This document shows positions 7,160 through 58,651 of a stretch of DNA of 64,000 nucleotides, in pieces. The stretch spans positions 10,132-74,131 of the forward strand of contig JBKPTD010000005.1 in assembly GCA_046735375.1 (NCBI GenBank), read 5' to 3'. A model generated the notes under the pieces. The model ran no database searches. It worked only from the letters and a program-made list of their open reading frames with translations, and had not been told where the DNA came from. Every line of letters begins with the position of its first letter. Position 1 is the stretch's first letter. The DNA comes from Actinomycetota bacterium. GTDB taxonomy: Bacteria > Actinomycetota > Actinomycetes > JAKEEW01. Position numbers and translations under genes: made by a program.

Positions 7160-8071
7160 GTGCGTGCCTCTCGATCAGTCCCCTTCGCTTTGGCCGGTCT
7201 CCTGATCGTCTGTATGTGGTGGGGGGCGACGTTCGTCGTCGTCAAGGACGCTGTCGAACGCATGCCGGTGATGGACTTCCTGGCCGTGCGGTTCCTCATC
7301 GCCGCGGCGGTGATGGTGGCGATCAGGCCCCGCGTCATACCGGCGGTCAGTCGCTCACTGGGTAGCTGGCGCACCGGTCTTGCTGCTCACGGCACACTGC
7401 TCGGGCTCGCTTTGGGTCTTGGCTATGTCGGGCAGACCTTCGGCCTGCAGCACACCTCCGCGACAATCTCCGGGTTCATCACGGGCATGTTCGTGGTCTT
7501 CACCCCGCTGATCGCCGCAGTGCTTCTTCGGCGGCCGGTTGGTACCTCCGCCTGGGTCGGTGTGCTCCTTGCCACGACCGGCCTCGCGGTGATTTCGCTG
7601 CATGGGTTCTCCATCGGCCTCGGGGAGGGCCTGACGCTGCTTTGTGCAGCGCTGTTCGGTCTCCACATCGTCGGTCTTGGTGAGTGGTCACCCCGCTATG
7701 ACTCGTACGCCCTGGCCGTTGTCCAGCTCACCGCCGTCGGCGTTCTCTGCGCGATCGCCGCGGCACCTGGCGGACTGACCGCACCACCTGACCGCGCGGC
7801 CTGGGGTGCGGTCCTGATCACCGCGCTGTTCGCCACCGCCTTTGCATTCGTTGTCCAGACGTGGGCACAGACGGTCCTCTCGCCCACTCGAACAGCTGTG
7901 GTCATGACCATGGAGCCGGTATTCGCCGGGCTCTTCGGGGTCCTCGTCGGAGGCGACAATCTGACGGCGCGCATCGTCATCGGTGGCACGCTTGTCGTCG
8001 CCGCTATGTACATCGTCGAACTCGGGCCACGCCACTCAGTGGATGCGCGCGTGGGCCGACTCGAGACGTGA
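7160..8071 (+). CDS. DMT-superfamily (EamA-like) transporter
   Basis: About 10 TM helices with duplicated EamA-like halves. The start is uncertain (GTG at 7160 or ATG at 7094); the ORF as listed begins at 7004. Confidence 0.6.
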   Translation: MRASRSVPFALAGLLIVCMWWGATFVVVKDAVERMPVMDFLAVRFLIAAAVMVAIRPRVIPAVSRSLGSWRTGLAAHGTLLGLALGLGYVGQTFGLQHTSATISGFITGMFVVFTPLIAAVLLRRPVGTSAWVGVLLATTGLAVISLHGFSIGLGEGLTLLCAALFGLHIVGLGEWSPRYDSYALAVVQLTAVGVLCAIAAAPGGLTAPPDRAAWGAVLITALFATAFAFVVQTWAQTVLSPTRTAVVMTMEPVFAGLFGVLVGGDNLTARIVIGGTLVVAAMYIVELGPRHSVDARVGRLET

Positions 8072-8195
8072 AGCCGACCGATGAGTTAGGCTGCCGCTCG
8101 TGCAGCATGCACGCTGGTTCTTTTATGGCGGTCGGCCCGGGAGGTTCCGGGCGGGCGGCCTGATCAGCGCGCGCTGACCAAGACCGAACGTCCAC

Positions 8196-8227
8196 GAGAG
8201 CCCCGGGCCGGGAGGCCCGGGGCTCTC
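8196..8227 (+). promoter_or_regulatory. Perfect 12-bp stem hairpin (GAGAGCCCCGGG-ccgggagg-CCCGGGGCTCTC) in the aroG-I leader / downstream of the DMT gene
   Basis: Inverted repeat seen directly in the sequence, 40 nt upstream of the DAHP synthase start. A 14-nt palindrome TCAGCGCGCGCTGA lies at 8162-8177. Confidence 0.4.
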
Positions 8228-8267
8228 GGTGTCTCCCGCCCGCATACACCCATCAAGGAGTCCTGGG

Positions 8268-9335
8268 ATGGTCGTCGTGATGGCGCCTGAGGCGTCAGAC
8301 AGCCAAATCAATGCCGTCGTCGACCGGGTCGCCGCGGCGGGCGGCGAGGCCTTCGTCTCCCGCGGAGTCGAGCGGACGATCATCGGATTGGTCGGTGACA
8401 TTGAGCGCTTCCGCGCGCTGAACCTGCGTACATTCGCCGGCGTCGCCGACGTCGTGCGCATCTCGGTCCCGTACAAGCTTGTCGCCAGAGAGCACCATCC
8501 CGACATGACGACGGTCTACGTCGGTGGCGTGCCGATCGGTCCCGACACGCTGACCCTCATCGCCGGGCCGTGCGCGGTAGAGACGCCGGAGCAGACACTC
8601 GACGCGGCGCGCATGGCCAAGGGCGCCGGCGCGGCATTGCTGCGCGGCGGCGCGTTCAAGCCCCGCACCTCGCCGTACGCCTTCCAGGGCCTGGGCGAGG
8701 CCGGCCTGCGCATCCTCTCCGAGGTGCGAGCCGAGACGGGCCTGCCCATCGTCACCGAGGTTGTCGACCCGCACGATGTCGATCTGGTGGCGTCGTACGC
8801 AGACATGCTCCAGGTCGGTACGCGGAACATGCAGAACTTCGCGCTGCTTCAGGCGGTGGGCGAGATCGGTCTGCCTGTGATGATCAAGCGCGGGATGAGC
8901 GCGACGATCGAGGAGTGGCTGATGGCGGCGGAGTACGTCGCCCGCCGCGGCAACCTGGACATCGTGTTGTGCGAGCGCGGGATCAGGACCTTCGAGACAT
9001 CCACCCGCAACACGCTGGACATCAGCGCGGTCCCCATCGCACATGGGCTATCGCACCTTCCGGTCATCGTCGACCCATCGCACAGCGGCGGAAGGCGCGA
9101 TCTGGTGCTGCCACTGGCCAGAGCCGCCATCGCCGCAGGAGCCGATGGAGTGATCGTCGACGTCCATCCACATCCGGAGTCCGCCCTATGCGACGGGCCG
9201 CAGGCGCTCGTCGACGGTGACTTGCGGGCACTGGCGCAGGCGGTCCGGCTGTTCCCGCCGCTGCTCGGCCGCGTGCCGGCGACGCTTCCGGCTGAAGCCC
9301 TATCCGCCAGCGTTGAGGAGCCCATCGGCGTGTGA
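8268..9335 (+). CDS. 3-deoxy-7-phosphoheptulonate (DAHP) synthase, class I-beta, with N-terminal ferredoxin-like regulatory domain
   Basis: KDO8PS/DAHPS I-beta core motifs are present (GPCAVE, KPRTSPY, DPSH). An N-terminal ~70-aa regulatory domain precedes them, and an AAGGAG Shine-Dalgarno sits 7 nt upstream of the ATG at 8268. Confidence 0.75.
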   Translation: MVVVMAPEASDSQINAVVDRVAAAGGEAFVSRGVERTIIGLVGDIERFRALNLRTFAGVADVVRISVPYKLVAREHHPDMTTVYVGGVPIGPDTLTLIAGPCAVETPEQTLDAARMAKGAGAALLRGGAFKPRTSPYAFQGLGEAGLRILSEVRAETGLPIVTEVVDPHDVDLVASYADMLQVGTRNMQNFALLQAVGEIGLPVMIKRGMSATIEEWLMAAEYVARRGNLDIVLCERGIRTFETSTRNTLDISAVPIAHGLSHLPVIVDPSHSGGRRDLVLPLARAAIAAGADGVIVDVHPHPESALCDGPQALVDGDLRALAQAVRLFPPLLGRVPATLPAEALSASVEEPIGV

Positions 9336-50087: not shown

Positions 50088-51455
50088 TCAGCCGCTGCTT
50101 ACGCCATGGATCGTGGCCCAGTCGCGGGCAATGGCGATCCGCTCGGGCGGCGTCGGGTGGGACGCGAAGAGGCCGTACACGACCGGACCCGGATCGAGGT
50201 CGGCGAGGTTTGTCACCGCGAGGCGATGCTGCATCGCAATCTGACCTGGCGGGTCGCGGACGAGGTCAAGGGCATGAACATCGGCGCGCGCCTCGATCCT
50301 GCGGCTGACGAGCAGCTCGAGTGGCGTCGCGAGCTGCGTGAACACCGCCACGATGGCCAGGATCAGGGCAATCGACCGCGGATCCGCCAGCGTCGAGACA
50401 CCGGCTCGGTGTTGGAGCCACGGCAGTTCGAGCACGAGGTAGAGGAGGCAGACCCCGAATGCCAGGCCGAGGGCGCCGATCAGGGTGCCGCGCAACACGT
50501 CGTGATGCTTGACATGTCCAAGCTCGTGCGCCGTGATCAGCCGGATCTCCTCGGGGGACATGTCGCGCAGCGTGGTGTCGTAGACCACAATGCGCCGGGT
50601 CGACCCGAAGCCGGAGACGTAGGCGTTGAGCCGGGTCGTACGTCTGGACGCATCCGCGACGAGCACATCCTTGACCGGCAGACCGTCCTTGTCGGCCAAC
50701 GCGATGAGCGAGCTCTTGAGCGGGCCGGGCTCCATCGGCTTGAAGTTGTTGAACACGGGCTCGATCAGCAATGGGTAGACGAACGAGCCGACGACGACCA
50801 TCAAGGCGGCGAGCGCGGAGGCGGGTACCCACCACCAGTGCGGTGAACGCCGGACGAGGGCGAGCAGAACGAAGAGAGCAAAGGCGATCACCACTGCGTT
50901 GATGCCGAACGCCTTCAGCCGATCGACCGCCCAGCTCCCCCACGTCTGCGTCGAGAGGTTGTAGTCGCGCATGACGCTCTCCGCACGAACGTCGAAGGGC
51001 AGCGTCACCAGGCTGCCAAGTGCAGTCAGAACCAACGCACCCAGCACGATGAGCCGCAGCCGGCCAGCGGCGCGCCGTCCTCGGCCGCCCACTGCGCCAA
51101 CGATGCGTGCGCCCAGTGGGGTCAGGCCGAGGAGCAGCGCGAGCGCGGAGCTGACGGCGAGCGCGGCGTAGGCCGGCGGTCGGACGGCACGGTGATAGGC
51201 CTCTTCTCGTGCGATCTCGGCCGCGGTGAAGTCCCTGGCGGGGTCGACGGCGACGGGGCCACCGGGAACAGGACCGAGCGTGCGCCACGGGGTGGTCACG
51301 ACGATCAGAGCAACAAGGCAAACGCCGAGGACCGCTGCGACGATCAGCGCCCAGCGCCGAGCCGACCAGTGCCTCACGTGCCTCCTGACTCCGTCAGCCG
51401 CGGCAAAGTTCCGCCCCTCCTCGCGAGGCCGGCTCCAGTCCGGCTCCGCCCTCAC
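50088..51455 (-). CDS. M48-family (Ste24/HtpX-like) zinc metallopeptidase
   Basis: HExxH (HELGHVKHHD), multiple TM helices, and an ATGA start/stop overlap with the upstream gene. Confidence 0.75.
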   Translation of the reverse strand: MRAEPDWSRPREEGRNFAAADGVRRHVRHWSARRWALIVAAVLGVCLVALIVVTTPWRTLGPVPGGPVAVDPARDFTAAEIAREEAYHRAVRPPAYAALAVSSALALLLGLTPLGARIVGAVGGRGRRAAGRLRLIVLGALVLTALGSLVTLPFDVRAESVMRDYNLSTQTWGSWAVDRLKAFGINAVVIAFALFVLLALVRRSPHWWWVPASALAALMVVVGSFVYPLLIEPVFNNFKPMEPGPLKSSLIALADKDGLPVKDVLVADASRRTTRLNAYVSGFGSTRRIVVYDTTLRDMSPEEIRLITAHELGHVKHHDVLRGTLIGALGLAFGVCLLYLVLELPWLQHRAGVSTLADPRSIALILAIVAVFTQLATPLELLVSRRIEARADVHALDLVRDPPGQIAMQHRLAVTNLADLDPGPVVYGLFASHPTPPERIAIARDWATIHGVSSG

Positions 51456-52885
51456 GCGGCCAGATCGGCTACGTAGTCGCGCCAGGCCGCGGTGAACCGC
51501 TTGGCGGTCGTCCCGAGTACGCCGTCGAAGGCCGCCCCGAGGTTCGCCCTCCGGGTACCGCCGAACGTGCCGACTTCACGGTAGAAGGCGACGAGCTTGC
51601 TCTGGCCCTGTTGGTCGGCGACGAGTCGGCAGGCCAGCCACGCCTTCTCGTACGTCGCGGCAAGATTGTCACGTTGAACGTCGAAGTCCTTGTCGCTCGG
51701 GAGGACCTTCGGAGCACCGTCGAGCCGAACGTCTCGCAGAAGCTCGCGGGCCGCCACGTCCGCCGGCACGTCCGTACCGAGATAGCCGACGTAGTCGGCG
51801 AAGCCCTCCGACAGCCAGGTGGGGGTCCACGTGTTGGTCGATGTCCTGGTGGCCACATGCGTTATTTCATGGGTCATCACGATGCGGCGACCCGTGCTGC
51901 TGAGCTTCGCCCAGATGGCCGGGTTGATGACGATCCGATCAGCGACACCGACGTCGGTCGGCATCGCCGATTCCGCCCGGGTGATCGCGGCAATCTGGGC
52001 GTACTTCCCCGCTGGCGCACCGAGCAGCGCGGCCATCCTCGCCTGGCTGTCCGGAGCCAGTACCACGACCTTCTGCTCCCAGTCTGTCCCCCAGACCCTT
52101 GTCACGCGCGGCACGGCCGCATCGGCCTCACCTGCGTGCCGCTCGAGCGAGGCCCTGGCGCCCTGCCCGAGCACGATGCTGTGTTCACCCCGCACAACCG
52201 TGACCGGCCCGAAGTCCCAGAGCTGCCGCTGGGTGAGATAACCGGCCCTATCGCCATCGGTGTCTGCGGCGATGTACCAGTGGCCGCCGTGCTGCCCAAA
52301 GGTGTAGTAGAGGTCCAATCGCGCCGCGGTGTGGTCGTACCCGTCGATCCGGTACCGGGCGGTGACCTTCCCGGCGAACGCATCAATGCCGAGCTCGGTC
52401 TGCCGCGTCGCGGAGAGCTGGAACGGCGAGGCGTCGGTCAGTTTGTAGGTCCAGCCGCGATAAGGAACGGACGCCAACGCGTCGAACATCTTTTGCTGAC
52501 TCTGGACGAATCGCGGTGCGCCGGGGTCGACCGTCGCGAGGAACGACTCGCGATCTCGATGGCTGATCGCGGCTGCCCGCCGGTCGAGCATCGCCTGGAC
52601 GGCCACCAAGCGAGCTCGACTCGGATGGACCGATGTGCTCGGTGCCGGGGATCCCGCCGTCGCATTCGGACGCTCCGCGGTGCGCAGTCCGGCGTCGCTG
52701 CCCACCTGGTTGTACGCGACCACGCCAGCGGTGGCGAACAGCGAGAGCACTATCGCAACGGCAGCTAGGCGTGGGCGCCCGAGTCGCCCGCGTCGGGGCT
52801 GGCCGACCGTCGGCAGGGTCGGGCTGTCACCGTCCCGCGACGCGACGTCGACCGCCGCGGGATCGGCTCGCTCGCCATCCTGCAC
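51452..52885 (-). CDS. Membrane-anchored hypothetical protein with C-terminal HExxH (putative zinc peptidase-like domain)
   Basis: N-terminal TM anchor and an MTHEITHV motif. It is translationally coupled to the M48 peptidase. Confidence 0.45.
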   Translation of the reverse strand: MQDGERADPAAVDVASRDGDSPTLPTVGQPRRGRLGRPRLAAVAIVLSLFATAGVVAYNQVGSDAGLRTAERPNATAGSPAPSTSVHPSRARLVAVQAMLDRRAAAISHRDRESFLATVDPGAPRFVQSQQKMFDALASVPYRGWTYKLTDASPFQLSATRQTELGIDAFAGKVTARYRIDGYDHTAARLDLYYTFGQHGGHWYIAADTDGDRAGYLTQRQLWDFGPVTVVRGEHSIVLGQGARASLERHAGEADAAVPRVTRVWGTDWEQKVVVLAPDSQARMAALLGAPAGKYAQIAAITRAESAMPTDVGVADRIVINPAIWAKLSSTGRRIVMTHEITHVATRTSTNTWTPTWLSEGFADYVGYLGTDVPADVAARELLRDVRLDGAPKVLPSDKDFDVQRDNLAATYEKAWLACRLVADQQGQSKLVAFYREVGTFGGTRRANLGAAFDGVLGTTAKRFTAAWRDYVADLAA

Positions 52886-53027: not shown

Positions 53028-53187
53028 CCTGTCCGGATCGAGCAAGGGCGCCTTTCATGCCCGGCAGGTGCACGGATGCCCCCTCTCCGACCTGGGTTGT
53101 CTGCCTCAGGCAGTCATGCCGCTGCTCGGTACCGCGGTGAAACTGTCCGCCCAGACGGCTAGCGTGGCCATGACTGGGAGGACACCA

Positions 53188-53943
53188 ATGGACGACATGT
53201 CTGGCAGGACCACGATCGTCGTCGGTGCAAGCCGGGGCCTCGGCCACGGGATCGCCACAGCCTTCGCCCAGGCCGGCGCCCCGGTGGTCGCAGTATCCCG
53301 TACCCAGGCGGCTTTTCCCGAGTCGGCCAACGGCGCCAGCGCCATCCGGACGGAAGTGGCCGATGCCAGTGACGCCACGGTGGTGGGCAGCCTCATCGAC
53401 CGTTACGAGCCAGTGACCGTCATTTTGGTGGCCGGCGCTAGCCCGCACATGCGCCCGCTGCAGCAACAGACCTGGGAGACGTTCTCGGTCAACTGGGAGA
53501 CCGATGTCCGAATCACGTTCCACTGGCTGCGCGAGGCGCTGCTCAAGCCGCTGCGGCCAGGCAGCAGGGTGGTCGTGTTCAGCAGCGGCGCGGCGCTGAA
53601 CCCGAACGGTTCACCGCTCAGCGGCGGATACGCCGGCGCCAAGGCCACACAGCGCTTCATCACCGGATATGCCCAGGACGAGGCGAGGCGCGCCGGACTT
53701 GACATCACGTTCACCGCGGTGCTCCCACGGTTCGCGCCCATGACCGGCGTCGGCCCGCCAGCAGTCCAGGCGTACGCGACCCTCGCCGGCCAGTCCGTAG
53801 ACGATTACCTCGATCAGCTGGACTTCTCGCCGCTGACCCCGGAGATCGCCGGCACCGCACTGGTCAAGCTGATACAGGAGGATGCCGCCAACGTCGCCCC
53901 CGCCTATGTGTTGACCGGCGCCGGGCTGCAGAAGCCACCCTGA
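53188..53943 (+). CDS. Short-chain dehydrogenase/reductase (SDR)
   Basis: Glycine-rich NAD(P)-binding loop (GASRGLG) and catalytic YxxxK (YAGAKA). Confidence 0.75.
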   Translation: MDDMSGRTTIVVGASRGLGHGIATAFAQAGAPVVAVSRTQAAFPESANGASAIRTEVADASDATVVGSLIDRYEPVTVILVAGASPHMRPLQQQTWETFSVNWETDVRITFHWLREALLKPLRPGSRVVVFSSGAALNPNGSPLSGGYAGAKATQRFITGYAQDEARRAGLDITFTAVLPRFAPMTGVGPPAVQAYATLAGQSVDDYLDQLDFSPLTPEIAGTALVKLIQEDAANVAPAYVLTGAGLQKPP

Positions 53944-54031
53944 CCAAGGTCACGTCACCAGCAACGGCAGGGCTGGGTCCAGGTCCCGTGCACGCTCCAG
54001 GGGGCCCCGCGACGCTGTTCAGCCGAACGAG

Positions 54032-55045
54032 CTAGCCGACGCGGCGGGCGGCCACGAACGGCATTGTGTCGATCGCCGTCACCTTGACGACATCACCGGG
54101 GTGCGGGGCATGGATCATAAGCCCCTCCCCGATGTAGATGCCGACGTGACTGATCGGGCTGTAGAAGAAGACCAGGTCGCCAGGTTGCAGGCTTGACCTG
54201 GAGACGGCGACGCCGACCTGAGCTTGCGCGGCCGAGACCCTGGGCAGGGTGACCCCCGCGGCTTGATAGGCACCAAGGGTCAAACCGGAGCAGTCCCACG
54301 AGCTGGGCCCGGTGGCCCCCCACACGTAGGGCTCACCGACCTGGTCTATGGCGAAGCGGACCGCCTTGCCGGCGCGGCCGCTTGGCAGGTTCTCCTTGAT
54401 GCTGTCCGGGACGACCAGCGAACCGGTCGACCGCAAAAAAGCACGCTGTTCGAGCTTGAGCGTCGCGAGCAACCCGTTGGCCCTTCGCATGCTCGCCTCG
54501 ATCGCGTCCCGCTTCTCGGTCATCGCGTTCTGCAGCTGCTCGATCTCACCGATCTGCCGAGTTGCCTGCGAGCGAATGGTCAGCAGATCCTGGCGGGCCA
54601 TCTCGACCCTGCGCAGTGCGTCCGCCTGCTGCGCGGACAGTTGATCGAGTGTTGTCGCCTGCTCGAGGAACTGCTGGGGATCGTCGGACAGGAACAGCTG
54701 GAGGGTCTGGTCGACGCCACCACTGCGGTAGGCCATCGTCGCGAAGATGCCGTTCTCCGTGAGCAGCTTGTCCAGCTGGTTCTGCTGCTCACCGACACGC
54801 TCTTGCGTGACCTTCAGCTCCCGCTCGGCAGCGCGCATTCGGTCCTGGTAGCCGTTGTACTGCTCGGTGGCCACTTCTGCACCGTGGTAGAGCTCACCGA
54901 TCTTCTTCTGGACATCGGTGATGCTCGTCGGATCCGCCTGCCCCGCAGAGGGGACCGTGATCAGAAGTGCCGTCGCGGCGGCTGATAAAACGCCAAGAGT
55001 GCGCGCCGGACGAAAACCACTGTGCGACGCCAACTGGTGTGGCAC
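54032..55045 (-). CDS. NlpC/P60 peptidoglycan endopeptidase with N-terminal coiled-coil (RipA/RipC-like)
   Basis: Signal peptide, ~200-aa coiled coil, and a C-terminal NlpC/P60 domain (Cys in DCSGL, His in SHVGIY). It uses a GTG start. Confidence 0.8.
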   Translation of the reverse strand: MPHQLASHSGFRPARTLGVLSAAATALLITVPSAGQADPTSITDVQKKIGELYHGAEVATEQYNGYQDRMRAAERELKVTQERVGEQQNQLDKLLTENGIFATMAYRSGGVDQTLQLFLSDDPQQFLEQATTLDQLSAQQADALRRVEMARQDLLTIRSQATRQIGEIEQLQNAMTEKRDAIEASMRRANGLLATLKLEQRAFLRSTGSLVVPDSIKENLPSGRAGKAVRFAIDQVGEPYVWGATGPSSWDCSGLTLGAYQAAGVTLPRVSAAQAQVGVAVSRSSLQPGDLVFFYSPISHVGIYIGEGLMIHAPHPGDVVKVTAIDTMPFVAARRVG

Positions 55046-55054
55046 CCCTTCTTC

Positions 55055-55205
55055 CTCCCACCGCCGACCGGGTGAGCTGACGGGTTCGGGCGGGGAAGAT
55101 CGGCCCTACGGTGCGTCGCATCCAGGCGTCACACCGATTCACCCCTGGGATCCACTGGGTCCCCGGCTCCGCTCGCAGCCGGTTGAGAATTCGCCGGCGA
55201 GGTCG
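55055..55205 (-). ncRNA. ydaO (c-di-AMP) riboswitch, copy A
   Basis: The minus strand reads ...CCGGGGACCC...CAGGGGUGAAUCGGUGUGACGCCUGGAUGCGACGCACCGUAGGGCCGAUCUUCCCCGCCCGAACCCGUCAGCUCACCCGG..., matching the conserved ydaO blocks. It sits immediately 5' of a purine-rich Shine-Dalgarno and the NlpC/P60 start. Confidence 0.7.
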
Positions 55206-55497
55206 CAGATTAGGCGGGACGTCCGCCCTCATCCCCGGTGGGATGAGCGTCCGTAGCGGACGTCTGGCGCGAAAACATATCGGTGATCAGGTACGCGGAG
55301 CAAGCACCGGAGCGGTCCGCTTCATGACAGTCCAACGATGCTGCACGCGGCAGACGGGCACGGCAATCTGAGCGAGCGGCGCGGCGGCCAGGATCATCGT
55401 GACAGCCGCAATCCATGGAGCGAGGCGCCGGCCGGGGCTCGGCGGAGGTCCCGGCCGTAACGCCTCACGTATCAAAGATGGCGTCCGAGGCGACGTG

Positions 55498-56520
55498 TCA
55501 CCCGGGCCGAGTGGCGCCCACGAAGGGCATGTAGCTGCCAGAAATGGACGTGATCTTCACGACGTCACCCGGGTGCGGCGCGTGGATCATCTTGCCGCCA
55601 CCGATGTAGATGCCAACATGGCTGATCGGGCTGTAGAAGAAGACCAAGTCGCCAGGCTGCAATTGACCTTGTGACACGTGCGTGCCATAGCCGTACTGCA
55701 GGCTGGACGAGTGAGGCAACGAGACGCCGGCCGCGCGCCAGGCCGCCATCGTGAGGCCTGAGCAGTCGTAAGACCCCGGGCCATCTGCTGCCCATTGATA
55801 GGGCTTGCCGAGCTGGGCGTAGGCGAAGTTGACCGCCAGCTTCGCGCGGCCGCTTGCCGGCACGCTTGAGGTTGGGGTCGTGGTCTGCTGCGTGGTAGGC
55901 GGCGGCTCGCTGGGCGTATTCAATGCCGCTCGCTGCGCCGCCGTGAGGCGGCTGAGCAGGGCATTGGCCCGCTGCAGCTTCTTTCTGACCTCTGCTTCCT
56001 TGGCCTTCAGGTCGTCGCGGACCTTGTCGATCTCGGCCAGTTTCTGGCGTGCGGTCAGCTTCGTCTGCTCGAGCTGCTGCTTGGCAAGCCGCAGCCGACG
56101 CAGCGCGTCAGCTTGCTGGGTGGACAGCTGGTCGAGTGTGGTCGCCTGATCGAGGAACAGTCTCGGATCGTCCGAGGTGAGCAGTTGGATGGTTTCATCG
56201 ACTCCGGCGTTGCGATAGGCCATCGTCAGATAGATGCCGACCTCGTCCTGTAATGCGTCGAGCGAGCGCTGCTGGGCGGCGACGCGATCCTGGATCACGC
56301 GCAACTGCTTCTCGGCCGCTTTGAGGTTCTCTGTCGCCACGTTGACTTGCTCGACGACCGCGTCGACCTCGTGATCGAGCTTGTTGACCTCGTCGCGGAC
56401 TTCGCTGATGGATCGCGGGTCAGCGTAGCTCGCGTCGGGCATGACGACGAATCCGACGGCAGTGGCGGTGCAGAGAGCGACCAGTGTGCGTACATAACGG
56501 CGTGAACCGACAGACGCCAC
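55498..56520 (-). CDS. NlpC/P60 peptidoglycan endopeptidase with N-terminal coiled-coil (paralog)
   Basis: Same architecture as the 54032 gene, with a nearly identical C-terminal catalytic domain. Confidence 0.8.
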   Translation of the reverse strand: MASVGSRRYVRTLVALCTATAVGFVVMPDASYADPRSISEVRDEVNKLDHEVDAVVEQVNVATENLKAAEKQLRVIQDRVAAQQRSLDALQDEVGIYLTMAYRNAGVDETIQLLTSDDPRLFLDQATTLDQLSTQQADALRRLRLAKQQLEQTKLTARQKLAEIDKVRDDLKAKEAEVRKKLQRANALLSRLTAAQRAALNTPSEPPPTTQQTTTPTSSVPASGRAKLAVNFAYAQLGKPYQWAADGPGSYDCSGLTMAAWRAAGVSLPHSSSLQYGYGTHVSQGQLQPGDLVFFYSPISHVGIYIGGGKMIHAPHPGDVVKITSISGSYMPFVGATRPG

Positions 56521-56539
56521 CAGAGCGGCACCCCTCTTC

Positions 56540-56690
56540 CTCTGGCCGCCTACCGGGTGAGCTGACGGGTTCGGGCTGGGGAAGACAAGCCCTACAACGC
56601 GCCAGGGCGCGTTGATTCACCCCAGGGAAGATTGGTTCCCCGGCTCCCTCGGAGCCCATTGGTGCCATCTGGGCCCGTCGGGACTCGGCG
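56540..56690 (-). ncRNA. ydaO (c-di-AMP) riboswitch, copy B
   Basis: Minus strand: ...CCGGGGAACCAAUCUUCCCUGGGGUGAAUCAACGCGCCCUGGCGCGUUGUAGGGCUUGUCUUCCCCAGCCCGAACCCGUCAGCUCACCCGGUAGG.... Differences from copy A are confined to one hairpin, which here is a perfect stem (AACGCGCC-CU-GGCGCGUU). Confidence 0.75.
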
Positions 56691-56809
56691 GAGGTCTCCG
56701 CCGACCACTCCGGTTGAGCAGCCGTCGGCGCGGACACCTGGTGCGGAACCATACTCATGATCCGCTCGCGGAGCAATGCGAACCGCCGTTTCTTGTGGAA
56801 AACGCCTGG

Positions 56810-57040
56810 TCAGGCCGATGCAGCCCGCCGCCGCCTCGGTCCGTGCGCATCCGGCGGCGGCGGACGTTTGACCGTGAGGCGCAGCGGGGGAACCAGGCCA
56901 GAAGCGGCGAGCACGCCGATGGCCGTCCGCTCTTCCGCATCGAGCGTCCCTCCGGCTGGCGGCATGCCGAGCAAGACGCCAACCGCGCAGTCGCCACACG
57001 CGACGTCGCGAACCGAGCACCTCTCGCAGTCGATGAGCAT
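56810..57040 (-). CDS. Small hypothetical zinc-ribbon protein (CxxC-x8-CxxC)
   Basis: 76 aa. A strong Shine-Dalgarno (GGGAGG, 6-nt spacer) precedes the ATG, and the N-terminus has MLIDCERCSVRDVACGDC. I recognise no homolog. Confidence 0.35.
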   Translation of the reverse strand: MLIDCERCSVRDVACGDCAVGVLLGMPPAGGTLDAEERTAIGVLAASGLVPPLRLTVKRPPPPDAHGPRRRRAASA

Positions 57041-57181
57041 GGCGAGCCTCCCAAAACGCCAGGTGACAGGCCCTCGCCCATCGCCTCGAGTCCTTCATTG
57101 CTCGCTAACGTAGGGGGCAGCTCCGACAAAATCGCATCGGCGTCACGGGCAGCACCTGACACGAGGGAGGCGCCCGCTTCC

Positions 57182-58651
57182 TTAGCCGCGGGCGAGGCGT
57201 CTGATCAACGCGGCGGCTGGAAGGGCCCGCGCCCCTGCCGTCCGTACACCATCGGCAACCTCCCGATCGCTTGACACGACGACGACGGGACGCCCGGAGG
57301 GCTCCGCTCGGACCAGCCGCCGAATGAGGTCGTCGGCGGTCTGACCCGGCTTGCTGAACAGAACGCGAACGCCTCGGGGAGCCGCCGACGGCACCGGTCC
57401 GGTGAGCGCGGCACCATCGAACACGCAGGTGATCTCGGCGCCGCTCTGCGCGGCGAGCCCGCCGAGCCCGCTGACCAAGCGGGCGCGTTGAGCTTCGAGC
57501 GGTAGGTTCGCGAAACCGGTCTTGGTGACGTTGTAGCCGTCAATGACGAGGTGTACTTGTGGCAGCGCGAGCAGCTGGTCGAGCAGCACCGGATCGTCTG
57601 CCTCCCGTGCCCGATCGGTGATCGACTCCACTCCAGCTGAGCCGGCCTTAAGTGCCTCGACTGTGTCCGCGGGCCTGATGGTGATGGGCGGCAGCGCCAA
57701 TTCCCGCCGCAGCCCCTGCGCCGCATCGAGGACGGTATCCAGCAGCAGGCGCAGGCGAATGTCTTCGATGCTGCGGCCCTCACGTGTGGTCCGGCGCGCG
57801 GATTCGAGTGACTGCTCGGCGTCTGCGAGGCGTGCCTTCATGCGCCGCAGCTCCGCATCAGCATTGGCCTGGGCGGCGGCTGCGTCCGCACGAGCAAGCT
57901 CGGCCGCCTCATCCGCGGTACGGGCGGCGAGCGCCGACTGCTTCGCCTGCTGGCGGGTGTCATGGAGCTTGTGCCGCAGGTCCGAGATCTCCGCCTTGGC
58001 CCGATCCAGCTCAATGCGCAGCCGATCGACGTCCGCCTTGGCTGTGGCACGAGTTGCCGCTAGCTGCTCCTGCACACGTGCCATCGCCTCGGTCGCCGCG
58101 GCCGAGCCCGCCGCTACCGTCGACCGCTCGACCTCGCGGCCGGCCGCCTTGACATGTCCTTGCCACCCGTCGGGGCGGAGCAGATAGGCGATCGCAGCGG
58201 TATCAAGGGGATCGGCCACCGCAGGAACGGCTCCGACGGTCAGTGCAGCCGCGAGATCGGGCATGGCCTCGCGGGCGCGGCCGGCCACGACCGAGCGAAA
58301 TGCGCCGTCCCTGGCGAGCGCGGCTGCGATCGAGGCAGCGGCCAACCGGGCACGCTTCTGTGGAGCGAACCGGACGAACTGCCGCAACGAGGCCGGCACC
58401 TCGCTGACCGGCAGCGCACCAAGGGCGTCGGCGGCGAGCGCAACGACCCGCTGGCGCACCGGCTCGGGTAGCACCCCGACGTCGCGGTCCTCAGCCGGTT
58501 GCCGCTCATCGGCGCCGATCCCCTCGTCCGCCGTCAGATCACCAGCGGTCGCACCGGCGCCGGCCTTGCCGGGGCCATCCCCCGAAGGCGCAGCACGACC
58601 AGGATCAGGCTCAGCCTGGTCCTCAGCCGGTCGAGGCGACGACTCCCACAT
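57182..58651 (-). CDS. NYN-domain (YacP/Rae1-like RNase) protein with long Ala/Arg-rich coiled-coil N-terminal region
   Basis: The C-terminal ~150 aa match the YacP-like NYN pattern (VHLVIDGYNV...TCVFDG...VVVVSSDREV). Confidence 0.55.
   Translation of the reverse strand: MWESSPRPAEDQAEPDPGRAAPSGDGPGKAGAGATAGDLTADEGIGADERQPAEDRDVGVLPEPVRQRVVALAADALGALPVSEVPASLRQFVRFAPQKRARLAAASIAAALARDGAFRSVVAGRAREAMPDLAAALTVGAVPAVADPLDTAAIAYLLRPDGWQGHVKAAGREVERSTVAAGSAAATEAMARVQEQLAATRATAKADVDRLRIELDRAKAEISDLRHKLHDTRQQAKQSALAARTADEAAELARADAAAAQANADAELRRMKARLADAEQSLESARRTTREGRSIEDIRLRLLLDTVLDAAQGLRRELALPPITIRPADTVEALKAGSAGVESITDRAREADDPVLLDQLLALPQVHLVIDGYNVTKTGFANLPLEAQRARLVSGLGGLAAQSGAEITCVFDGAALTGPVPSAAPRGVRVLFSKPGQTADDLIRRLVRAEPSGRPVVVVSSDREVADGVRTAGARALPAAALIRRLARG

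Follow-up and report, generated by a model that had tools for sequence, protein, structure and literature searches.

Two adjacent paralogous genes, here called gene A and gene B, lie on the minus strand of a 64,000-nucleotide (nt) stretch of the genome of an Actinomycetota bacterium (assembly GCA_046735375.1, contig JBKPTD010000005.1, positions 10,132 to 74,131), hereafter the window. They encode NlpC/P60 cell wall hydrolases, and each is preceded by a riboswitch of the ydaO class, the class of riboswitches for c-di-AMP (cyclic diadenosine monophosphate), as seen in Table 1. This type of regulation is well known; here it is duplicated as a whole unit. A first-pass annotation had proposed two coiled-coil NlpC/P60 paralogues, each with its own ydaO riboswitch, and this proposal was confirmed, while some of its details were corrected.

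Table 1. Features of the two riboswitch-hydrolase units, in window positions (c-di-AMP, cyclic diadenosine monophosphate; aa, amino acids; SD, Shine-Dalgarno sequence)
Feature	Position	Strand	Sequence or remark
Gene B	55498..56520	-	340-aa secreted RipC-like peptidoglycan endopeptidase; GTG start 56520; PF00877, AlphaFold2 model, Foldseek
Gene A	54032..55033	-	333-aa paralogue of B (337 aa from in-frame GTG 55045); probable start TTG 55033
c-di-AMP (ydaO) riboswitch aptamer B	56532..56697	-	RF00379 score and counted helices
Aptamer B, P1	56690-56687 with 56550-56547	-	CGCC with GGCG
Aptamer B, P6	56614-56595	-	perfect 8-bp hairpin
Aptamer B, P7	56592-56573	-	loop UCUUCC 56585-56580
c-di-AMP (ydaO) riboswitch aptamer A	55047..55216	-	RF00379 score; 5' limit revised by homology and P2 covariation (L081, L087)
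Aptamer A, P1 (corrected)	55216-55213 with 55065-55062	-	CGCC with GGCG
Aptamer A, P2 closing stem		-	UCUGC/GCGGA
Aptamer A, P6	55136-55109	-	7 bp + A.A + 3 bp
Aptamer A, P7	55106-55088	-	loop UCUUCC 55099-55094
Expression platform B	56521..56546	-	linker GCCAGA, then pseudoknot 3' strand, SD, post-SD element
Platform B, pseudoknot 3' strand	56540-56535	-	GGAAGA, complementary to P7 loop UCUUCC
Platform B, SD	56534-56529	-	GGGGUG
Platform B, post-SD element	56528-56521	-	(U)GCCGC inside CCGCUCUG
Expression platform A	55034..55061	-	linker GUGGGA, then pseudoknot 3' strand, SD, post-SD element
Platform A, pseudoknot 3' strand	55055-55050	-	GGAAGA; alternative register GGGAGGA 55059-55053
Platform A, SD	55048-55043	-	GGGGUG
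Platform A, post-SD element	55044-55039	-	UGCCAC (UG common with SD), inside CCACACCAG 55042-55034
Promoter-like element, unit B	56748..56776	-	-35 TTGCTC 56776-56771, 17-nt spacer, -10 TATGGT 56753-56748
Promoter-like element, unit A	55274..55303	-	-35 TTGCTC 55303-55298, 18-nt spacer, -10 TATGTT 55279-55274
GC-rich hairpin after gene B	55430..55456	-	GGCCGGG, 13-nt loop, CCCGGCC; ~42 nt past gene B stop; no U-tract

The C-terminal domain of both proteins matched NlpC/P60 (PF00877), with E values of 6e-26 for B and 3e-25 for A, and full-length identity between the two proteins is 49%. Protein B was modeled with AlphaFold2 on the basis of 38 homologues, with a mean predicted local distance difference test score (pLDDT) of 82 and a predicted template modeling score (pTM) of 0.73. 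The model consists of a signal region that is disordered, at the N terminus, and, ahead of the NlpC/P60 fold, a pair of very long helices (38-104 and 119-189). Block pLDDT was 82-98 along the length of the helices and 59-84 around the turn at 105-118. The Pro/Thr-rich linker has a low-confidence core at 211-218, and no prodomain was found. In a Foldseek comparison of this model with the PDB, RipC from the FtsEX/RipC complex of M. tuberculosis was the best full-length match (8idc_E; E 3e-15 over 309 columns), and the coiled-coil hydrolase Cg1735 of C. glutamicum (8aud) came second; the remaining matches covered the catalytic domain only. Across the homologues, D252, C253, S254, and H301 were invariant and G255 and H313 nearly so. 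All six of these catalytic-motif residues are identical in both window paralogues, which have the DCSG motif and the Cys-His-His triad of RipC-type endopeptidases. The label "coiled-coil NlpC/P60" was right, since the model of protein B, the RipC top match, and the conserved DCSG and His residues agree with it, and "RipC-like" is the more precise name.

M. tuberculosis RipC and C. glutamicum Cg1735 are coiled-coil NlpC/P60 endopeptidases activated by FtsEX or by a partner. The window proteins resemble RipC (Rv2190c) and Cg1735 in having a signal peptide, an antiparallel coiled coil, a linker rich in Pro, and an NlpC/P60 domain that contains DCSG and two His, but sequence identity in the structural alignment is only ~25-28%. 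No mention of a riboswitch on mycobacterial ripC was found in the limited set of reviews searched, and this is not evidence of novelty.

The first-pass annotation implied that gene A starts at GTG 55045. TTG 55033 is probably the start instead, since residue 5 (L5) of the long open reading frame (ORF) of A (54032-55045) aligns with Met1 of B in BLASTP, A-type leaders are the only ones in which the GUG within GGGGUG is in frame (every B-type leader has it out of frame), and a (G/U)UG GCG start motif, giving Met-Ala-Ser, is conserved throughout the leaders.

Both leaders are members of RF00379, the ydaO family, by score, helices, and pseudoknot. When the whole window was searched with Rfam 15 cmscan, exactly two matches exceeded the gathering score (38 bits for RF00379), and both were to RF00379 on the minus strand. 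Aptamer B (56697-56532) scored 74.4 bits (E 2e-15) and aptamer A (55209-55047) scored 67.4 bits (E 2e-13), each covering model positions 1-134 of 134. A looser covariance scan of 53900-57300 returned the same two RF00379 matches and no further credible one. The conserved ydaO blocks quoted in the first-pass annotation are exact in copy B and are found in copy A with one to two substitutions.

The helices were examined next to those of other actinobacterial leaders. We sampled 80 loci from Actinomycetota species-representative genomes, recovered by back-translated peptide patterns (best match 44% identical), and searched them with a covariance model based on both window copies. This model begins at P3 and ends at the start codon, since the copies do not align in P1 and P2 with MAFFT, and it found 47 aptamers in the sampled loci. 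P1 and P2 of aptamer B are present as CGCC/GGCG and UCCC...GGGA. In an alignment of 49 aptamers, which was fitted to the covariance model and so favors the structure, 95.8% of the cells in the nested helices P3-P7 were paired, with 10 pairs showing changes on both sides. None of 500 shuffles reached the observed value on any measure, and slid controls were 26-54% paired. Between the two window copies, 95.7% of helix cells were paired, and three pairs in P6 were compensatory. Both window aptamers would be expected to bind c-di-AMP.

The loop of P7, UCUUCC in both copies, is complementary to the purine block GGAAGA downstream of P1, and we take this pairing to be the pseudoknot of the ydaO class, going by its published consensus. 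The pseudoknot between the P7 loop and the purine tail co-varies across 49 actinobacterial leaders. CUUCC:GGAAG was the commonest pairing, and UUCCC:GGGAA, CUCC:GGAG, UCUCC:GGAGA, and CCUCU:AGAGG were also seen; one leader (L077) had a perfect 11-bp match between loop and tail. Mean duplex energies in the 49 leaders were -11.1 kcal/mol when loop and tail were cognate, -9.4 when they were non-cognate, and -8.2 when the tail was shuffled. In 10,000 permutations, none was as good as the cognate pairing, a test that is inflated by kinship among the sequences.

The 3' strand of the pseudoknot ends 6-18 nt before the start codon and abuts or overlaps the SD in most of the 49 leaders. In Streptomyces, the pseudoknot strand GGAAGG directly overlaps the SD GGAG. 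The order of the tail is conserved: P1 3' strand GGCG(G), linker, purine block, SD, YGCC, 4-7 nt, start codon, and GCG. This layout, with the SD set against the pseudoknot strand, was kept across genera. As the first-pass annotation had noted, a purine-rich SD lies near the end of each aptamer, with GAGGAAGAGGGG and GGGAGGAAGAAGGGG coming 5-6 nt after the P1 3' strand. The hexamer GGGGUG, which adjoins GGAAGA and stands upstream of the start codon (by 8 nt in B and 9 nt in A), would be an extended SD pairing with 5'-CACCUC-3' near the 3' end of 16S rRNA (CACCUCC).

No intrinsic terminator was found between either aptamer and its start codon in a scan that depends on a U-tract; the sole terminator-like match of the scan sits inside aptamer B (P6/P7). 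From the P1 3' strand to the start codon there are 26 nt in B and 28 nt in A, compared with 19-32 nt (to the chosen start) in RipC-like leaders, and therefore there is no room for a separate terminator.

Most RipC-like leaders, from several genera, keep a post-SD element YGCC, which reads UGCCGC in B and UGCCAC in A. Its sequence complements two sites, namely the P1 3' strand and the GGCG that spans the start codon and the conserved codon for Ala. In local folds, the start codon is enclosed in a hairpin of 4-6 bp, which in window B is GCCGC-UCUG-GUGGC, with an unpaired probability of 0.01-0.02. L081, L087, and L085, which are metagenomic relatives of the window locus described below, have UGGCGC instead of UGCCGC, which disrupts the window-B hairpin. 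A three-way switch, in which YGCC would pair with the P1 3' strand in the free state and with the start-codon GGCG in the bound state, gave no consistent change in accessibility and was set aside.

Two further pairings were considered and rejected. A CCAGAG/CUCUGG hairpin around the SD of copy B was rejected because it is not conserved: its stem counts 6 bp in the window but 5 in L081, 5 with a bulge in L085, and only 3 in L087. The P4 loop of copy B contains UCUUCC once more (56626-56631, minus strand). The minimum free energy (MFE) fold of that copy pairs it with the purine tail, which would make it an alternative partner of GGAAGA. It is not conserved in B-type relatives, CTTCC or CTCC occurs in only 6 of 49 P4 loops, and this second UCUUCC is probably incidental.

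The first-pass annotation also stated that the two copies differ almost only in one hairpin, which is not the case. They are 73% identical over 110 well-aligned aptamer columns, with differences spread over P2, the P4 loop, P6, and the linker. The P2 sequence differs, with ~42 nt in B versus 45 nt in A in the corrected register. The shape that had been described for the P6 hairpin was correct: B has a perfect 8-bp stem with a CCUG loop, and A is longer and of different sequence, with 7 bp, an A.A mismatch, and 3 further pairs. The accompanying claim that P6 lacks covariation did not hold, since three pairs of the lower stem are changed on both sides between the copies (A-U to G-C, A-U to G-C, and C-G to U-A); one pair is changed on one side.

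Another correction concerns the 5' limit of aptamer A. Rfam places P1 of copy A at CGCC 55199-55196 with low posterior probability. In the alignment of A-type and B-type leaders of relatives, the homologous P1 strand is CGCC 55216-55213, inside the conserved CCCGCCUAAUC, and L081 does not have any proximal CGCC. The distal register consists of CGCC 55216-55213, UAA, and UCUGC/GCGGA, with a P2 hairpin of -14 kcal/mol. The closing stem of the A-type P2 covaries: the window has UCUGC/GCGGA, L081 has UCCGC/GCGGA, and L087 has UCGC/GCGA. These comparisons suggest that CGCC 55216-55213 is most likely the 5' strand of P1 in copy A, upstream of the region that had been given for this aptamer.

Upstream of the aptamers, pattern matching and a MAFFT alignment of the 190 nt before P3 in A-type and B-type leaders revealed promoter-like blocks. 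The A-type and B-type leaders align and have in common a TTGC(T/C) -35-like element followed 17-18 nt downstream by a TANNNT -10 hexamer; T(T/C)CCGC(A/G)CCAG and a pre-aptamer hairpin are also shared. The unit B block is kept in the B-type leaders of L081, L087, and L085. Between genes B and A, strong conservation among the window, L081, and L087 is confined to the ~115 nt upstream of aptamer A. This conservation, together with the actinobacterial TANNNT -10 consensus, suggests that the blocks are promoters, with predicted transcription starts near 56741 (B) and near 55267 (A). A consensus scan for promoters and terminators detected neither these blocks nor the hairpin after gene B; the scanner missed the unit B block because its -35 matches the consensus in only 3 of 6 positions. 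The post-B hairpin is conserved in L081, and the stem in L087 is different yet complementary (GCGGCCGAAACC/GGTTTCCGCCGC). It could be a terminator that lacks a U-tract. Two separate transcription units are proposed because each unit has a promoter-like block and a conserved hairpin follows gene B. The promoter, too, would have been included in the duplicated cassette. A stretch of 31 nt is repeated with 84% identity between the post-B hairpin (55427-55457) and the 5' end of riboswitch B (P1/P2, 56673-56703). Its 13-nt exact core is not significant, as 16 of 100 shuffles match as well, and the repeat may be a scar of tandem duplication or chance.

Protein searches returned relatives that are up to 94-98% identical, all of them metagenomic. 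The related contigs have a gene block in common, made up of rhomboid, RNase_T/GIY-YIG, NYN, a 67-81-aa ORF, two NlpC/P60 genes, an MA-type peptidase, an M48 peptidase, and a glycosyltransferase. Both riboswitches are present in five of seven related metagenomic loci (L081, L082, L083, L084, and L087). The other two, L085 and L086 (3784-6041), have a B-type unit with an aptamer and, 86 nt after it, an A-type gene with none. In a neighbor-joining protein tree, the A-type and B-type proteins form sister clades within the window lineage. The riboswitch-less gene of L085 sits inside the A clade, which points to secondary loss of its riboswitch; the second riboswitch was probably lost in L085 and L086 and the pair turned into an operon. 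The aptamer tree is broadly like the protein tree, with the low resolution of a short RNA. Identity between aptamer A and its orthologues is 93% for L081 and 80% for L087. From these trees, the tandem duplication is specific to the window lineage.

Tandem pairs of RipC-like genes are also frequent in Streptomyces and Kitasatospora (L002, L005-L007, L012, L020, L022, L026, L027, L038, L039, L043, L044, L061, and L064), with a ydaO aptamer on the first gene only. Their duplication stands apart from that of the window lineage in the protein tree and is independent of it. No adjacent gene pair with two riboswitches was found in the 80 loci from other genera, and the remark in the first-pass annotation that a duplicated riboswitch-gene unit is less commonly described was therefore fair. 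The duplicated unit is a minor variation only, slightly unusual in that both adjacent paralogues seem to have kept the full regulatory cassette, which is conserved by the lineage.

Taking these results together, we favor, with moderate confidence, two units that are each under translational OFF control by a c-di-AMP riboswitch. A lineage-specific tandem duplication would have copied a whole cassette of promoter, leader, c-di-AMP riboswitch, ribosome-binding site (RBS), and RipC-like gene, and each leader would fold as a ydaO-class aptamer. At high c-di-AMP, the ligand would stabilize P1 and the UCUUCC:GGAAGA pseudoknot. The pseudoknot would then hold the ribosome-binding region against, or partly within, the folded aptamer, and binding of the 30S subunit would be blocked, so that each hydrolase would be translated only at low c-di-AMP. 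The direction and the translational level of control are suggested by the lack of a terminator, the position of the pseudoknot strand against the SD, and the precedent of C. glutamicum nlpC. The first-pass annotation had likewise regarded a translational platform as likely, and this is the best reading in view of the missing intrinsic terminator, the short distance from P1 to the start codon, and the abutting pseudoknot strand. The ydaO class is a genetic OFF element (PMC11481543).

Several observations weigh against translational OFF control of two separate units. In the window clade, the canonical register UCUUCC:GGAAGA does not base pair with the SD GGGGUG, and occlusion of the SD would therefore have to be steric or occur through an alternative CCCC:GGGG register. 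Two-state folding, in which each of 49 platforms was folded once with the P1 3' strand and the pseudoknot strand available and once without them, as an approximation of the free and bound states, made the start codon less open in 14 cases and more open in 16 (Wilcoxon p = 0.74). MFE folding of both leaders was no better than that of shuffled sequences (z -0.83 and +0.30), which is expected for an RNA that is pseudoknotted and ligand dependent. The evidence for the promoters and the terminator is sequence conservation. Finally, in the S. coelicolor leader of rpfA, the only Streptomyces member that has been characterized, c-di-AMP is reported to cause premature transcription termination although there is no canonical terminator (PMC10117811), and a transcriptional component may therefore be involved.

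This last point leads to the main alternative, which we regard as unlikely, namely that the riboswitches act chiefly on transcription, by terminator-free premature termination or pausing or by leaving the untranslated leader open to Rho, with loss of translation secondary or absent. A block of translation commonly results in Rho-dependent polarity, which counts in its favor. The premature termination of rpfA was reportedly seen in vitro upon c-di-AMP binding, and rpfA mRNA was up five-fold in an S. venezuelae disA mutant (PMC10117811). The rpfA leader resembles the window leaders in being without a canonical terminator (PMC9960051). Against action on transcription, neither window aptamer is followed by a U-tract hairpin, and the 26-28 nt available are too few for a terminator. 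Moreover, the layout of the SD against the pseudoknot is conserved across genera, and the mRNA of C. glutamicum nlpC does not respond to c-di-AMP (PMC9960051).

Another possible explanation, which we find doubtful, is that both genes are co-transcribed from the unit B promoter, with an intercistronic riboswitch A that gates translation of the second cistron only and with intergenic promoter and terminator elements that do not function. The post-B hairpin lacks a U-tract, the consensus scan finds no promoter, and the 86-nt spacing of the genes in L085 and L086 presumably puts them on one transcript, all of which would fit such an operon. A translational riboswitch can also work within an operon (PMC9960051). 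On the other hand, the block before aptamer A (TTGCTC-18 nt-TATGTT) aligns base for base with the block before aptamer B, and the two are homologous although the aptamer B block follows a different gene. The pairing of the post-B hairpin is also kept by compensatory changes in L087. The least probable explanation by far is that one aptamer, most likely A, is a decaying copy without ligand binding or regulation: aptamer A has the lower score, a non-standard P4 pair, and the A.A mismatch in P6, and its counterpart was lost in L085 and L086, yet it still lies 29 bits above the gathering score with all conserved core blocks intact, 18 of the 49 aptamers have a non-standard P4 pair, and the degree of conservation of aptamer A in L081 and L087, with compensatory changes in P2, argues for selection on it.

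The best precedent for translational OFF control in the window is the ydaO-type riboswitch of C. glutamicum nlpC, described in 2023, which has no terminator and was found by reporter assays to be an OFF switch on translation (PMC9960051). High c-di-AMP lowered reporter protein there and not mRNA, the second cistron was unaffected, and the aptamer CTCC was proposed to pair with the RBS GGAG (PMC9960051). The window shares with it a ydaO-class aptamer straight upstream of an NlpC/P60 gene, the lack of a canonical terminator, and a second nlpC-type gene adjoining the first. The pyrimidine tract of the aptamer is complementary to the RBS in C. glutamicum; in the window, its partner GGAAGA adjoins the RBS. 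C. glutamicum has one riboswitch per operon and a second nlpC without one, whereas each window paralogue has its own promoter-like block and riboswitch. Also, the window proteins are RipC-like with a coiled coil, and the window switch is proposed from sequence.

Riboswitches of the ydaO class, or c-di-AMP riboswitches, upstream of actinobacterial wall hydrolase genes have been known since 2009-2013. Seven wall hydrolase genes in S. coelicolor and six in S. venezuelae are preceded by such a riboswitch, and this control, as the first-pass annotation had stated, is established in Actinobacteria (PMC10117811, PMC11481543). S. lividans has six annotated ydaO leaders. The window leaders resemble those of Streptomyces rpfA and other hydrolases (Haiser 2009; St-Onge 2015, 2017; as cited by PMC10117811 and PMC11481543) in the presence of several copies per genome, the lack of a canonical terminator, and the OFF logic. 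Streptomyces rpfA differs from the window genes in that it encodes a lytic transglycosylase-like Rpf protein and that its control is reported to be transcription attenuation (PMC10117811). The sampled Streptomyces RipC-like pairs differ from the window in having the riboswitch on the first gene only.

The window aptamers also share the RF00379 fold, with its pseudo-two-fold helices, conserved core, and pseudoknot, with the B. subtilis ydaO/kimA c-di-AMP riboswitch, which Nelson et al. reportedly described in 2013, and with the Thermoanaerobacter-type crystal structures. Firmicute members usually have an intrinsic terminator and control ion or osmolyte transporters; the window members, in contrast, have no terminator, a pseudoknot strand merged with the RBS region, and a wall hydrolase as target.

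Tandem c-di-AMP riboswitches are two aptamers in one leader that serve one gene, and 77 have been counted (Sherlock et al. 2022, PMC9481103). The window locus resembles them in that its two aptamers belong to one class and lie near each other on a single strand. However, it does not consist of two aptamers in one leader without a gene between them. Since gene B (1,023 nt), the hairpin, and the promoter-like block separate the aptamers, the locus is a duplication of a gene unit and not a tandem riboswitch. True tandem c-di-AMP doublets, as catalogued in PMC9481103, were seen in Actinomadura, where two RF00379-like aptamers lie in series in one leader (L024 7539-8013, L013 4784-5338, L016 3280-3886, and L029 7511-8058). 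In L024, a GC hairpin of 12 bp (~7729-7757) stands between the aptamers, and a gene for a CHAP-domain hydrolase (8004-8834) comes after them. The first Actinomadura aptamer is followed by a conserved AAGGAGUGAAU... and then by a very short ORF only.

The window thus adds two well-supported members to a class already known to control actinobacterial wall hydrolases. A complete cassette of promoter, riboswitch, RBS, and gene can apparently be duplicated and kept in an uncultured actinomycete lineage. The practical value is modest: two cis-regulatory RNAs, two start codons, and two probable promoters can be annotated. The 49 leaders provide comparative evidence for a fusion, in Actinomycetota, of the ydaO pseudoknot strand with the ribosome-binding region, and this fusion supports a translational mechanism that has so far been shown only in C. 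glutamicum. The locus would also link c-di-AMP signaling to RipC-type, presumably FtsEX-dependent, division hydrolases, beyond the Rpf proteins. A more speculative idea, to which we give little credence, is that RipC-like ydaO leaders of Actinomycetota in general share an as yet undescribed three-part translational platform of pseudoknot strand, SD, and a YGCC that mimics the P1 5' strand, with the duplicated units tuned to two c-di-AMP thresholds. If this were true, the divergence of P2, P6, and the linker between the duplicated units would set two c-di-AMP thresholds for two division hydrolases.

The genes next to the units are an NYN-domain gene of the YacP type and a divergent RNase_T + GIY-YIG gene. 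The latter presumably resembles Rv2191, the neighbor of ripC (Rv2190c) in M. tuberculosis. Between the NYN_YacP gene and the unit B promoter lies a 76-aa ORF (56810-57040, minus strand; MLIDCERCSVRDVACGDCAV...) with CxxC...CxxC. It had no Pfam match, an ORF of 67-81 aa was called at the same position in every related contig, and it may encode a conserved small cysteine-rich protein. Downstream of gene A, positions 51452-52885 (minus strand) encode a 477-aa protein with weak Peptidase_MA_2/M1 matches, whose position is conserved in relatives. A short-chain dehydrogenase gene (53068-53943, plus strand) stands between it and gene A; this gene is absent from the related contigs shown and may be a local insertion.

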